The notes under the pieces were generated by a model. It had not been told where the DNA came from. It searched no databases and saw only the letters and a program-made list of their open reading frames with translations. The position numbers were made by a program, and so were the translations under genes. This document shows, one piece after another, positions 11,272 to 18,577 of a DNA stretch of 64,000 nt. Source of the stretch: a virus (Duplodnaviria > Caudoviricetes); IMG/VR virus record IMGVR_UViG_3300049141_000098, positions 195,647-259,646 of that record, one strand, 5' to 3'. The first letter of the stretch is position 1. Each line of letters starts with the position of its first letter.

Positions 11272-11281
11272 GGCCTAGGCC
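11272..11281. promoter_or_regulatory. GRCCTAGGYC palindrome (candidate operator)
   Basis: GGCCTAGGCC just upstream of an RBS. Confidence 0.65.
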
Positions 11282-12939: not shown

Positions 12940-14811
12940 TTACTTACCGGCCCTTGCCAGACCCTTGCGCGCAGCCTCCTGCGTGCGCTTGTCCGCCTTG
13001 CGCGGGGCGGGCTTGCGCTCACCCTTCGGCGTGAACTCCGGGCGAGGCTCGTGCGAAACCGTCCCGCCCACGTTGCCATCAGCGAACGATCCGACCGACG
13101 CGACCTTGCGAGACTCCCGACGCTCCGTTCCCGTGAGCCGGGACCCCTCGGCAATCTCCCTGGCCTTGGACGCTTCCCGCGCTTCCTCGCGGCCCTTGAG
13201 GTATGCGCCTACCTTTGTGGAGTGACGCCGCCGCTGGGCCCGGCTCATGCCCTTGTGGGCAATGTCCTTGGGTGCCTGGCACAGTGGGCAGATTTCACCG
13301 GACACCCCGGGGTCAACTCCCGGGCGAACCGTCGCGGGAAGGCTCATGGTTCCCGCCTTACCGACCCATCCGCCGGGCCGGACCGGAGCCATGTTCTGAC
13401 TCCCGGTCGTCGCGGCACCGTCCACCGAACCGTGATCCCGCTGACCCTTACCGGCGTCCGCACCCGTCCCGCGCGGGGTCACCTTGCGCTCGCCCTTGCC
13501 GTCCGCTCCCGCCCGGCGGAACGACTCACCCGGCACGGTGTGAATCGACATGATCCACACGTCGCCCTTCTTGCGCTGGACCCGCTTCAGCTCAACGCCA
13601 CGCCGACCGCACCCCTTGGGACCGTCGCACGTGATCGTCCCGCCCGTCGCGTCCTTGACCACCTTGCGCGACCGGCCGCACCGGGTCTCGGCAACGCGCC
13701 GCTTGTCCGCCGCCGCAGGGTCGCCCGGAATGGTCCCGTGTTCCACCGTGTCCATGGACTTTGAGGACATGTGCGGGTTCGCGGGAGGGTTCACCCCGTA
13801 CTCAAAGTGCGAACCGATCCGGAAGTCGTCGTCTGCCACCGTGTCCGCGAGGGGGATGTACGCGCGGCACTCCGGGCACTTCCCGTGCGTCCGCTCCGGG
13901 TTGACGATCTCCACCGGGCCCTTACCCGCGCACCCTCGATAGTCCGTGTCACCCGCACCATTCGTCCCGGACCACTGCCCCCGTCGCACCGCCGGATCCG
14001 GAAGGGACGCCACCTCCGCCGGTACGGGGTGACCGGCCGCGTAGTAAGCGGCAACCTGGGCCCGCATCTCAGCGTGCGTCAGACCCGTGACCCCGGTCGT
14101 CTCGTCCATTCCGGGCAGGGTCGGGGCAGACTCGTCCCGCACCGCCGGAACGGTCGGACGCTTGTGACGACGCATGCCACCCTCGCGACTTACCGCGATG
14201 ATCCGGTCGCAACCTTCCCCCGGGCACTTCCCAGAGTGCTTGCCGTTGTAGTCGTCCGGCACGCTCACGGTGTGGTCATCGCGCTGTACACGCGTCCCAG
14301 CCATCGGAGGCTCACCGGTCCCGTCACACCGGTCGTTCTGCGCGTCCCGCGCCGCCCGCTGTTCGGTCAGCCGCGCCCGCTCCCGGTCAACCGCCACCGT
14401 GCGCCGCGCCTTACCCTGCGCGCCCTTGGACGCCTTGACGATTTCCCGCACTTCCTCACGGGCAATCTCCCGCACTGCCGGAGCAATGTCCGCGCCCAGC
14501 TCCGGGCCACCCTCGGCACCCTCCGCGTACTGGGCATACTTAGCCTCACGCGCGGCCTCAATGTCGTTCTTCCCGCCGGTCGTGGCCAGCCACTTGACGC
14601 ACCGGGCACACATTCTGTCGCCGGTGAACTTTTCCGTCAGACGCTCCGAGTCGACACCCTTTCCGCCGCACGCCGTCCCAATCGTCCCGCCCGTCGCAAG
14701 CGGGTCATTCATCGCTCCCGCCGGAATCAGCAGCGCGTGACCCGCTCCGCTTTCGTACCCGTACATACGGGGGGTGTCATCGGCCGTGAGTGCCACAAAC
14801 AGACTGGTCAT
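12940..14811 (-). CDS. 623-aa hypothetical protein with several Cys-pair motifs
   Basis: Longest left-arm ORF; RBS motif; CARC, CPGEGC, CPEC, CPLC. Confidence 0.8.
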   Translation of the reverse strand: MTSLFVALTADDTPRMYGYESGAGHALLIPAGAMNDPLATGGTIGTACGGKGVDSERLTEKFTGDRMCARCVKWLATTGGKNDIEAAREAKYAQYAEGAEGGPELGADIAPAVREIAREEVREIVKASKGAQGKARRTVAVDRERARLTEQRAARDAQNDRCDGTGEPPMAGTRVQRDDHTVSVPDDYNGKHSGKCPGEGCDRIIAVSREGGMRRHKRPTVPAVRDESAPTLPGMDETTGVTGLTHAEMRAQVAAYYAAGHPVPAEVASLPDPAVRRGQWSGTNGAGDTDYRGCAGKGPVEIVNPERTHGKCPECRAYIPLADTVADDDFRIGSHFEYGVNPPANPHMSSKSMDTVEHGTIPGDPAAADKRRVAETRCGRSRKVVKDATGGTITCDGPKGCGRRGVELKRVQRKKGDVWIMSIHTVPGESFRRAGADGKGERKVTPRGTGADAGKGQRDHGSVDGAATTGSQNMAPVRPGGWVGKAGTMSLPATVRPGVDPGVSGEICPLCQAPKDIAHKGMSRAQRRRHSTKVGAYLKGREEAREASKAREIAEGSRLTGTERRESRKVASVGSFADGNVGGTVSHEPRPEFTPKGERKPAPRKADKRTQEAARKGLARAGK

Positions 14812-14865: not shown

Positions 14866-15051
14866 TTACTGCTCGACGATGTGCCGGGCGTCACTGCCCC
14901 ATGCGCTACCGCGCACCCATGCCGCACTCGCCGCGTAGTCACCCAAACCGGGCCGCCGGTAAATCCGGCCGGTTTCGCTCCGGTACTCAATCGTCCCGGA
15001 CTCCTTGACGATCACCGTTGCGCCATCCCGCAATGCGAGCGTAAGAGTCAT
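14866..15051 (-). CDS. hypothetical protein (MTLTLALRDG...), first ORF of the leftward arm
   Basis: CGGAAAGGAAAAGCGGG RBS before ATG 15051. Confidence 0.65.
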   Translation of the reverse strand: MTLTLALRDGATVIVKESGTIEYRSETGRIYRRPGLGDYAASAAWVRGSAWGSDARHIVEQ

Positions 15052-15179
15052 CCCGCTTTTCCTTTCCGAAGCCTCCCCATGCGGAGGGCGAAACGGACAC
15101 AGCTCACCCGTAATAGCGTCACGCAGGTTCTTTGCCTGCTGCCTACCGGACGTGAGTTGTCCGTTCGTGCTCACCGCAC

Positions 15180-16110
15180 GTGAGCGATAAGGGGGCGAAC
15201 CGTGCGTCGTCCAGTGGAAAGCGTCCCGTTTATCGGGTCGTCTGTCCGTGCGTCGCTATCAGCGTTCGCCCCCTCCTCATGCAATCCGGTCCCGTAGGAC
15301 CGGGCACGGGGCGCTAAGCGTTACCCGTGCGTCGCCGGGGGGAGTTTCTGAGGCTCCCCGTATCCGGCCGGTACCGTCGCACGTCACCCCGGTCAACCCC
15401 ACGGGGGATTAGACCCGTGCCCGGAGAGTGCGTGATCATCTATGCCGTCCTCGCATAGTGCGTTTGGTAACTCGCACCCGGGGTGAAACGGGTTCCGCTA
15501 CGGACTGACTATTTCGACACGTGTTCCCGAATGCATTCCCAGGTTTCACCGCGTGGCTTGCGGATGGACTCCCTGACAAGTGGCCCGTACTTACGTGCGC
15601 CGTAACTCGCGGAGGCTGGACTAACTGACTTGACACGCTTTCCCATGACATCCCCGGATTCCCCCGCCGCGCAGGTTGCGGCTGTAAGGCATTCCGGCGA
15701 GTGGCCACGTACTCCCGTGCGCCATACCCCCGACTGACGGAAGGTTTACCCCTCCCCCAGGTGCGAGCGCCCACCGTTTCCGGCCGTGGTGGACAGTGCC
15801 GTTTGCGCCTCCCGCGCTACCCGGTCAACCCGGGCGTTTCGCGTTCGGCTCCGAGAATCTCAAGGAACCCCATTCGGAGTTGCGAGCAACGAGACTGCCC
15901 GCGCTTCCGTCCGGCCCGCTCCCGCCCCATCGTCGTCCGGCGAACCGGTGCGTCAGAGCGAATGCGAGTGCTTGTGCTGTGCGCCCCGCGCTGCGTCCCG
16001 TAGGCGCTGCGTCGTGGCGACAACGAGAACATTGGCAGAGATGGCTGCCATTGCGTAAGCGAACAGCGCGAGCAACGGGTCTCCCGATTTGCAAACTCGC
16101 AGGTCAGAGC
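15180..16110 (-). ncRNA. candidate large structured noncoding RNA or leader
   Basis: No credible ORF; nested inverted repeats; two c(UACG)g loops and one GAAA tetraloop on the minus strand. Confidence 0.45.
15502..15726. repeat. imperfect tandem duplication (~105 nt units, 15502-15604 and 15618-15726)
   Basis: Shared blocks GGACTRACT, GACACG, TTGCGG, AGTGGCC(A)CGTACTYMCGTGCGCCRTA. Confidence 0.7.
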
Positions 16111-16800
16111 GTTGTAGCGAAGTTGATGTTGGATCCCATATCTCACGACCACATGCACCCTGACCTGCGAAGAAGACAAGTTTGGTAACGAACAGATAAC
16201 GGCCTAGGCCACACGGTATGACCTGCGACGATGCGACAAAGGTTTTTGTTTGTGCAGGTCAGAGAGGTCCCAAACTTCGAGGTCTCGCGAGTGAAACAGA
16301 CAGAACGGACAAAAATTGACCAACATTTACGAGTGCTGGGGGGTATGCAAACGTCAGTGGAAAAGAGTTTCCAGAGCTGAGTGTGACCCAAGTCACACGA
16401 CAATCGTCTCAGCAGTGACCAAACCGGACAGGTGCGGGGAGGGTTCCGGGCGAGTGAAAGGGGGGCGTCCCGATTCTCAAAACCAGCACTTGACCAGCAA
16501 CAACACGCGTGACGTACGCGTATGTCCAGTTTGGTATGTCTGTCTATGTATGTAGTGGAAAGAAATGGAAAGTGGGATAAGGGCCTTACGCTCTGTATGG
16601 GATTGGAAGTGCTGGAATTTCTCTCGCCGGAAACCTGTACCGGACGTCAGAAACATGCAGGTCAGAGGCGTGTCCCGAATGTCGGAATCAGCGCTGATCA
16701 TGCTGCTGAGCTGCGGGAATGCGACGTGATGACCAGGGCGCAGCACTCGGCTTGTGAGACACGCTGTCAGCAAAAGCGGAATAGCAAACACCGCAGGTCA
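16099..16800. repeat. cluster of six TGACCTGC/GCAGGTCA boxes
   Basis: Exact 8-mer at 16099, 16161, 16219, 16254, 16657, 16793. Confidence 0.65.
16201..16210. promoter_or_regulatory. GRCCTAGGYC palindrome (candidate operator)
   Basis: GGCCTAGGCC in the noncoding block. Confidence 0.65.
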
Positions 16801-17099
16801 GGCAGGGTGCGACTTGTGCTGTCTGGCGTACTGATCATGTGTCTGACCTGGGGATATGCCAGCCCTACGCGCGCGCGTGCGCTCTCCTGTCTCCCGCTCG
16901 GCCTGTCCCGAATGTCTGATACGCGACACATTGTGTGGAGTCCCGGACGCCATAGCCATACGGGGTAGGGGTATGTAAGAGATCTTGAGAGGGAGAGGTT
17001 CGAGCAGTGAGGTGGGTGGGGATGCTCGAAGGTTTGGCCAGTTCAGGGCGCAGGGTGCTGGCCAGACAGGGGACGTGACGAGACGAGACGTCTCGGAAG

Positions 17100-17820
17100 T
17101 GGTGACCAGGTGCACGCACGTGCGCGCGACGCACGATGCGGGCAGGCATGCGCGCGTGCCAGGCGCAGGCAGGCACGCGCGCGCGTTGCGGGCACGTTCG
17201 CGCTCGACGTTTCTCGATATCGCAGCGTGCCAGCAATGGCGACATGCGGCGCGCCTTTGTCGAGCGCCCAATGGGAGGCATGACGAGAATGGTGCGCAGC
17301 AATGCAAGAGGCCAGGCAGGGCAGGCAATGTGAGGCAGAGGGAAGTGAGCGGAAATGCTGGAATGTCAAAGCCTCTTTCGCTGCTTTATCTCGCATTCTG
17401 TTTTGTGTAAGTCGCTGCTACACATCACACCTAGTCTGACCAGCAATGACAGGAGAGGCAGGCAGGGAAGCAGGAGGGAAAAGAACTGGAAAGGAAAGGA
17501 GTCTCGCCAATGCTCACGACTATCGCCCTATGTCAACAAAGCAGGAAAGGCAGGGCAGAAGAATGCAAGAGACAAGGCAGAGGACAAGGCAAAAGATATG
17601 CAGGGAAAAGGAAGGGGAAAGGTCTGGCTATCTCGGCAGCAATCAAAGGGATATGAACAACTCTCTATGTCACGCCAATGCACAAGCCCTATGCGTACGA
17701 ATGCATGCATGAACAGGAGAGGAATGGAAGGCAAGCGAGTGCGAGGGAAGCAGCGGAGAAAATCAGCAGACAACTCGAAAGGAATTCGAATTGAAAGATG
17801 CACTATGCAGAAAACCAATT
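17100..17820. other. low-complexity noncoding tract: alternating RY run followed by a purine-skewed segment
   Basis: GCGCGCGCG/GCACGCACG runs, then GGCAG/GGAAAG/GCAAG-rich plus strand. Confidence 0.6.
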
Positions 17821-18073
17821 CTCTATAGCTATTTGGAAATGGGGCCCGGGTTAGGACTGCATGTCCGTCTACGCGTGGGCCCCGTGGGCAGTGTCCACAG
17901 CACCTCTCGATGCAGGAAATCATCCAGGAAGCGACAGACGGTGAATCCGAGTGCCAGAAAAATCCGCCGTCTGCTGCACACGTGGGCGCCCGGTGGGCTT
18001 ACTTTAGTTTCATGCGAGACCGGCCCGTCAAACTACAAGATCCTTTTAGTTTGTTCTGCGTTATCGTAGGGAG

Positions 18074-18577
18074 ATGGAAACGAAGCAGGCCTACTGGCGT
18101 TCCCGGCAACCTACCCTTCCGCATCTTGGAACCGCGTGGGACGTAGGTGAAGAGTTTGGGATAAGCGGAAGGCTGATCGAAGAGTGGTGTGTCAGGTATG
18201 ACAATCCAGCGTCACGACCCTCCGTCCCTGCTCAAGGAATTTTCCCTCCTCCGGTCATGCAGCTAGGAGGTCGGGACGTCTGGCTGATCGACCAGGTTCG
18301 AGAGTGGCACACATGGATGCTCGACAATGATCCGGACTTCGCCGCCTATCGAAAGCGTCGGGCTCCGCACCTTCTGTCGGCCTGGGGTGAGACAAAGTCG
18401 TATGCCGAGTGGCTGCTGGATGACCGATGCCCTCTCGTATACGTCTCGACCCTGACGGGGAGGCTGGGTCGCGGATGGCCGCCAGAGCGCGCCGTCTCAA
18501 CCCCGGTTCAACCCCAAGGCAGGTCTTCCGCTCAGAAGCCCTACACGGAGGGAGAATCCTTCGCCCGAGGCCGATAG
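18074..18577 (+). CDS. DNA-binding protein: AlpA/excisionase-like HTH plus C-terminal DNA-binding module
   Basis: VGEEFGISGRLIEEW...FPPPVMQLGGRDVWLIDQVREW; GETKSYAEW...RLGRGWPPERAVSTP. Confidence 0.65.
   Translation: METKQAYWRSRQPTLPHLGTAWDVGEEFGISGRLIEEWCVRYDNPASRPSVPAQGIFPPPVMQLGGRDVWLIDQVREWHTWMLDNDPDFAAYRKRRAPHLLSAWGETKSYAEWLLDDRCPLVYVSTLTGRLGRGWPPERAVSTPVQPQGRSSAQKPYTEGESFARGR

Follow-up and report, generated by a model that had tools for sequence, protein, structure and literature searches.

The window, by which we mean the whole 64,000-nucleotide stretch of DNA analysed here, forms the final 64 kb of a virus record that is 259,646 bp long. At the locus described below, a leftward operon is separated from a direct terminal repeat by DNA that carries no gene, and most of this gene-free DNA appears to be occupied by a structured element read on the minus strand. 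The principal features, in window coordinates, are as follows.

12940..14811, minus strand: second gene of the leftward operon, 623 aa, very basic, with at least five CxxC-type pairs (zinc-ribbon-like)
14866..15051, minus strand: 61-aa gene that opens the leftward operon; the records of Frankenweenie, Satis and Kela annotate it
15060..16110, minus strand: the whole putative structured element, with its 5' boundary at about 16095-16110, beside the first GCAGGTCAGAG site, and its 3' boundary at about 15060, at the ribosome-binding site (RBS) of the first gene
16096..16716, both orientations: array of GCAGGTCAGAG sites directly upstream of the predicted RNA, a DNA-level element that is not part of the fold
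16201..16218, minus strand: GGCCTAGGCC palindrome with the -10-like hexamer TACCGT two bases upstream, about 100 nt upstream of the fold
16618..17851, no strand assigned: direct terminal repeat, placed by homology, since the repeat starts and ends of Frankenweenie, Satis and JustBecause map here

The locus matches the right ends of Streptomyces cluster-BM phages at 70-79% identity. Seven isolated phages are involved: Frankenweenie, Satis, Quantum, Kradal, EhyElimayoE, JustBecause and Kela. Cluster-BM phages are prolate-headed siphoviruses with genomes of 184-200 kb and direct terminal repeats of 1,038-1,049 bp, and their physical ends were established by experiment, from the build-up of reads and a doubling of coverage; the two genome announcements that report this do not mention the region (PMC10652959, PMC6687918). 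Repeat lengths that we re-derived from the records are 1,038 bp for Frankenweenie, 1,049 bp for Satis and 1,043 bp for JustBecause.

Further copies were sought with a conserved-pattern search of IMG/VR and of soil and rhizosphere metagenome contigs, and full regions were then mapped by BLAST. The element is collinear in the seven isolated phages and in about ten metagenomic contigs, which together represent about 11 distinct lineages. Four of the 14 metagenome pattern matches (L027, L028, L032 and L036) were discarded as unrelated. A conserved 22-base pattern also matched bacterial genomes 11 times, in unrelated MAGs; none of these matches was accompanied by the D2 domain described below, and we took them as chance. 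The public sequencing runs listed as carrying the locus are DNA runs from soil and rhizosphere metagenomes, with no RNA run among them.

Gene order is the same in every relative: leftward genes, a small gene of about 60 aa, roughly 1.5-1.65 kb of gene-free DNA, and a gene-free terminal repeat. The position of the element is fixed between the last leftward gene and the direct terminal repeat, in unique DNA about 0.5 kb inward of the right terminal repeat. The 61-aa gene and a gene of about 520-650 aa always follow it. The 61-aa protein is 31-40% identical to its relatives, with nine invariant residues. The 623-aa protein has no match in Pfam or PHROG.

By homology, the physical ends of this phage and its direct terminal repeat, about 1.2 kb long, would lie within 16618-17851, in which case the IMG/VR record and the virion DNA would be circular permutations of each other. 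In the relatives the repeat begins with TTTCTC and ends near GGGTCCCAGGT. The site array straddles the start of the repeat, in DNA that is less G+C-rich, and comprises six to eight GCAGGTCAGAG sites whose positions are conserved in all relatives. Three of the four exact copies of GCAGGTCAGAG in the 260-kb genome fall in this array. The motif is essentially confined to the locus, and on that ground we rejected the idea that it is a genome-wide promoter motif. As a side observation, the roughly 2 kb spanning the array and the terminal repeat (16100-18100) contain no open reading frame (ORF) of coding character, have a G+C content of 55-57% against about 64-69% in the flanks, and show a GC skew that turns positive. 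A 148-aa ORF at 16522-16968 gave one sub-threshold Pfam match, to DUF2116; the neighbouring proteins otherwise belong to no Pfam or PHROG family.

Does the gene-free DNA between the array and the operon encode a protein that has escaped annotation, or is it a functionless G+C-rich spacer in which palindromes arise by chance? ORFs of 90-130 aa are present in several frames, as a coding region would require, but none has a G+C pattern of the coding type. There is no 3-base periodicity in the region, and variable sites show no preference for any of the three phases. Most insertions and deletions break the frame: only 15% of gap runs in the alignment are multiples of three, compared with 57% in the neighbouring coding gene. 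The annotators of the seven cluster-BM phages called no gene at the locus in any of the seven records. A sequence-only reading of the region had asserted that it holds no credible ORF, and the tests of periodicity, gap runs and G+C pattern agree that it is non-coding.

The spacer explanation draws what strength it has from folding of the single sequence. Compared with dinucleotide shuffles (20 per strand), the region gives z-scores of only -1.8 (minus strand) and -2.0 (plus strand), essentially equal, although the 3' 261 nt folded alone give a z of -3.5. The sequence-only reading had itself proposed the comparison with shuffled controls, and by that measure its case is weak. What decides the matter is comparative folding. 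We prepared a sequence-based MAFFT alignment of 14 minus-strand sequences (A1), which probably understates the structure and misaligns the rod hairpin described below. The RNAalifold consensus on A1 contains 204 pairs, of which 64-65 are compensatory, that is, changed on both sides; all the alignments, this one included, sample a single phage clade, so that many of the two-sided changes go back to common ancestry and are not independent events. In the minus reading the structured region has a consensus minimum free energy (MFE) of -198.1 kcal/mol against -109.5 ± 8.1 for column shuffles (z -11), with 64 compensatory pairs against 18.7 ± 4.7 and a covariation term of 13.6 against 2.0. In the plus reading the corresponding values are -148.3 against -99.0 ± 7.9 (z -6.3), 53 against 18.1 ± 4.5, and 12.2 against 2.2.

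The adjacent coding gene from the same phages served as a control. Its consensus MFE is -68.8 against -71.4 ± 5.9 in the sense direction (z +0.4) and -66.7 against -57.3 ± 6.6 in antisense (z -1.4). Compensatory pairs number 34 against 22.8 (sense) and 33 against 19.1 (antisense), and the covariation term is negative. Against a z of -11 and 64 compensatory pairs where shuffled columns give 19, we hold that chance palindromes or a missed gene have next to no prospect of explaining the region.

Three domains were realigned with covariance models, R1, R2 and R3 (alignments A6, A9 and A11), each compared with 500 shuffles. Model R1 (15299-15467) has 42 pairs, with 98.5% of cells paired and 17 pairs changed on both sides; none of the 500 shuffles reaches its covariation score, and slid partners are only 40-49% paired, with one to five two-sided changes. 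Model R2, covering 15797-15914 in domain D1, has 21 pairs, 96.9% paired, eight of them changed on both sides. Its covariation score is 0.398 against 0.193, reached by 0 of 500 shuffles, and slid controls are 28-45% paired. Model R3 (15614-15765) has 18 pairs, 96.7% paired, of which nine have changed on both sides; the covariation score of 0.393 (against 0.208) is again reached by none of the 500 shuffles, and slid partners pair at 41-48%. Loop sequences and junctions are strongly conserved, and the fold as a whole has at least 20 helices. The proposal that the region encodes a new large structured RNA thus survives column-shuffle, letter-shuffle and slid-partner controls, all of which its covariation far exceeds, and the homologues that had been suggested as a check share the conserved fold, with compensatory changes, across the roughly 11 lineages.

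The array upstream behaves differently. Its consensus MFE (16096-16720) is -67.7 against -37.8 ± 4.2 on the minus strand and -78.4 against -40.7 ± 5.2 on the plus strand, a z of about -7 on both, yet compensatory pairs number only 15 against 10.9 (minus) and 24 against 12.3 (plus), and the covariation term is about 0. Stability on both strands with no covariation is what inverted DNA repeats would show, and the array thus looks like a set of sites for protein binding, perhaps by a terminase, a replication initiator or a regulator. A conserved repeated motif free of compensatory variation, the mark of iterons and operators, is found in the array and not in 15060-16095.

The proximity of this array raises the question of whether the element itself functions as DNA. 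Its hairpins could form in single-stranded or supercoiled DNA and serve in packaging, end formation or replication, for example in terminase recognition beside the terminal repeat or as a single-strand origin. Its location about 0.5 kb inward of the right terminal repeat in every relative would suit such a role, as would the iteron-like array next to it, which has no counterpart at any other place in the genome, the similar single-sequence z-scores of the two strands, and the almost exclusively Watson-Crick character of the pairs that the two strand readings have in common. Protein-binding sites, however, conserve sequence; here the sequences change and the pairing is kept, in long-range and nested helices and in a three-way junction as well, whereas the neighbouring array, a true DNA site, is stable on both strands without covariation. 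We know of no packaging or origin element that is a multi-domain fold of 1 kb. The strand asymmetry described next also speaks against a DNA-level element, and we regard one as improbable.

Which strand folds? A G·U pair on one strand reads as A·C on the other, and the model-based domains contain 50 (R1), 50 (R2) and 44 (R3) G·U cells, all of which would be A·C on the plus strand; read that way, pairing falls to about 83-92%. Raw wobble counts are not decisive for the consensus folds. RNAalifold finds wobble-containing helices on either strand, and for this reason we counted only within helices that both readings predict. Among these, pairs specific to the minus reading include 110 G·U cells, whereas pairs specific to the plus reading include 19. 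The minus reading is also 50 kcal/mol more stable. One helix, near 15219-15253, runs contrary and favours the plus strand, with 25 A·C cells against one G·U. Two other approaches were set aside: a strand-neutral helix finder that allowed both G·U and A·C returned many spurious helices and did not decide the strand, and a count of neighbours of core pairs was uninformative (82 G·U, 88 A·C). From the wobble pattern in the alignments, the folded strand is the minus strand. G·U usage thus bears out the earlier assignment to the minus strand, and likewise its co-orientation with the leftward genes, the folded strand being the sense strand of the leftward operon.

Taken as a whole, the minus strand from about 16095 to 15060 most likely specifies a multi-domain structured RNA of a new family, as predicted from comparative folding. 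At about 1.04 kb here, and 1.1-1.17 kb in most relatives, the element is real but longer than the 0.9 kb first proposed. From 5' to 3' it would comprise a 5' domain, domain D1, a tandemly duplicated middle domain, domain D2, a rod hairpin and a terminal three-way junction:

15965..16095, minus strand: 5' domain (A1 columns 105-183), nearly invariant, with little Watson-Crick covariation
15797..15919, minus strand: domain D1 (model R2), nested helices round a hairpin with a conserved 9-nt loop, then a hairpin with an 11-nt loop
15614..15765, minus strand: middle domain, repeat unit A (model R3)
15494..15595, minus strand: middle domain, repeat unit B, recognized by self-alignment of the two halves as a tandem copy that has diverged from unit A
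15299..15467, minus strand: domain D2 (model R1), six helices, including the hairpin 15304-15310/15324-15330
15286..15303, minus strand: c(UACG)g hairpin with an exact 7-bp stem, a window-specific insertion absent from the relatives in A1
15191..15273, minus strand: rod, a long irregular hairpin whose base is the 10-bp helix 15191-15200/15264-15273 of the sequence-only reading
15091..15185, minus strand: hairpin 15169-15185, then a three-way junction closed by 15158-15166/15091-15099
15060..15089, minus strand: conserved hairpin 15073-15088, then the RBS GGAAAGGA at 15060-15067, from the sequence and the alignments

The 5' domain contains an invariant small hairpin, AUGG-CAG-CCAU, at 16041-16051 and a long imperfect hairpin at 15982-16019. 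The latter is capped by UACG here and has a longer stem with UCCG in most relatives. A 1x1 internal loop in this hairpin (A1 columns 150 and 173) is A·A in the window, in Satis and in contig L035, and G·G in most others. Put another way, a direct repeat, GACGCRGCGC, changes its R in both copies. This could be an isosteric purine-purine pair and a candidate site of protein recognition. This co-varying purine-purine loop resembles sites at which proteins recognize RNA helices, the HIV Rev-response element being an example.

RNAalifold also proposed that the 5' end and D1 pair at long range with the 3' hairpin. We rejected this as unsupported; the columns concerned are invariant, and D1 pairs locally with covariation. 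In the middle domain the tandemly duplicated unit is about 125 nt long. Model R3 finds a second, weaker match on unit B (27.7 bits, E 1e-6), which is confined to the window and one group of relatives (L030, L035, L002, L016, L017 and L033) and is missing from lineages of the Satis and JustBecause types.

Toward the 3' end the lineages differ in their hairpins. The D2 hairpin 15304-15310/15324-15330 covaries, with C-G, G-C and U-A at one position. At the place of the c(UACG)g insertion, JustBecause-type phages have a different insertion that forms a 13-bp hairpin. The equivalent of the rod measures 85-95 nt and forms the same long hairpin in every lineage from different sequences; its closing helix is GGGGGCGAAC/GUUCGCCCCC here and GGGAGCGGAC/GUCCGCUCCC in JustBecause. 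The helix that closes the three-way junction has 110 Watson-Crick, seven G·U and no A·C cells, with two compensatory pairs. The Satis group has no terminal three-way junction, and its structure runs almost into the RBS.

The local observations of the sequence-only reading can now be set against this fold. The five pairings that it listed are all perfect complements (10/10, 7/7, 11/11, 7/7 and 8/8), and its repeats are exact: CCGTGCGTCG occurs three times (15200, 15246 and 15325), CCCGGTCAACCC twice (15388 and 15820), and GGCGAACC(G)GTGCGTC as a pair (15194 and 15939). Helices 15191-15200/15264-15273 and 15304-15310/15324-15330 are conserved; 15300-15310/15414-15424 and 15286-15303 are not. The suggested switch has no comparative support: the strand 15414-15424 of the 11-bp alternative helix falls in an insertion found in this phage only.

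The suggestion that the RNA matches no known class has held up. A search of the 64-kb window with Rfam 15 (4,227 families) at the gathering score returned no match. Permissive searches gave no family match either: with E<=10 for 14900-17800 and E<=5 for the loci of six relatives, single chance matches to animal lncRNA and miRNA models were all that appeared. The families without a match include GOLLD, ROOL, OLE, HEARO, raiA, group I and II introns, RNase P, tmRNA and riboswitches.

How would such an RNA act? One answer is that it is a stand-alone large 'ornate' noncoding RNA of the GOLLD, ROOL or OLE kind, made by leftward transcription and freed either by processing or by a termination signal unrecognized in our scan. 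It would act in trans, for example in a ribonucleoprotein (RNP) with the basic CxxC-rich protein or as an RNA assembly, and its position before the operon would be incidental. To our knowledge, an RNA of about 1 kb with at least 20 helices far exceeds any cis-regulatory leader, and a size beyond that of known leaders fits a stand-alone RNA better. The same can be said of the duplicated unit and the lineage-specific hairpin insertions and deletions, which match large noncoding RNAs better. The strongly conserved loops and junctions, the co-varying A·A/G·G loop and the constant presence of the 61-aa and 520-650-aa genes downstream also favour this reading; from its composition, the 623-aa protein is a candidate nucleic-acid-binding partner of the RNA. 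Against it, neither a terminator-like site nor a conserved 3'-end signal precedes the first gene, the structure abuts the RBS in every lineage, and there is no tRNA gene within the 64-kb window, in contrast to many GOLLD and ROOL loci. A stand-alone RNA is the main rival to the reading that we favour, and has, in our judgement, a modest chance of being the right description.

GOLLD and ROOL are large ornate noncoding RNAs, often found in phages or prophages, and their structures have been described (bioRxiv 10.1101/2024.12.08.627333). The present element is likewise large, multi-domain, phage-borne and defined by covariation alone. It differs from them in matching neither Rfam model, in being longer (about 1.0-1.17 kb), and in residing in actinobacteriophages, at a fixed place that adjoins a terminal repeat and immediately precedes an operon. 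A large screen of IMG/VR for structured RNAs yielded short candidates, 67 nt on average, and its main text names no case from Streptomyces or Actinobacteria (PMC10690425). As with those candidates, the evidence here is covariation in viral contigs from the same source database.

Apart from ribosomes, introns and a few ornate classes, there are few large RNAs whose complex folds are conserved, and each new class of this sort has tended to reveal new RNA biochemistry or architecture. The element described here exceeds 1 kb, with strong covariation along its whole length. It also occupies an unusual and well-defined site in prolate-headed Streptomyces phages of 185-260 kb, immediately inward of the terminal repeat and at the head of a probable host-takeover operon. 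Its occurrence in cultured phages with tractable hosts (Satis, JustBecause, Kela, Frankenweenie and others) opens it to experiment. The boldest interpretation is that it is the largest phage-encoded ornate RNA to date, more than 1 kb long with duplicated domains, and a free RNA machine or RNP at the genome terminus instead of a passive leader. We consider this rather unlikely. If true, the RNA might act with the basic CxxC-rich protein or with the GCAGGTCAGAG array, and might have a role in end formation, packaging, the start of replication or host takeover. The packaging RNA of phi29, a protein-primed podovirus, is about 120-174 nt long and is encoded near the genome end. It too is a structured phage RNA from near a genome terminus and presumed packaging signals, but it has no similarity to the present element, and nothing at this locus shows a packaging role.

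The reading that we favour, and think probable, is that the element is a giant structured leader of the terminal operon, acting in cis. It would occupy the stretch devoid of genes that separates the terminal repeat and the GCAGGTCAGAG array from the long leftward operon of small genes, and would be made as the 5' part of the operon transcript. The fold might then influence elongation or antitermination, the stability of the mRNA or access to the first RBS. Our main reason is that the element is contiguous with the first gene in all lineages with no terminator between them. A scan found no terminator-like site between the structure and the 61-aa gene, and the three terminator-like sites that it did return are no more than expected by chance. 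We also count in favour of a leader that the last helices abut the RBS of the conserved 61-aa gene, and that the Satis-group structure, for all its missing junction, comes almost up to that RBS.

Among cis-acting antitermination leaders, HK022 put and lambda nut, from phage early operons, are about 20-70 nt long with one or two stem-loops. The present element resembles them in its place ahead of the first gene of a long phage operon that runs in its own direction, with no terminator-like site in between, and by analogy a structure-dependent action on its own transcript is plausible. In contrast to put and nut, it is about 1 kb long, has at least 20 helices and shares no sequence similarity with them.

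The evidence on a promoter cuts both ways. We count for the leader the -10-like hexamer and GGCCTAGGCC palindrome about 100 nt upstream of the fold, present in this phage only, and against it the absence of any sigma-70-type promoter that passes a consensus scan, together with the absence of the palindrome from the equivalent place in all relatives. The site at 16201-16218 is possibly a regulated leftward promoter, in this phage alone. The other copies of GGCCTAGGCC in the window, at 11272, 22216 and 42690, also lie beside -10-like or -35-like hexamers.
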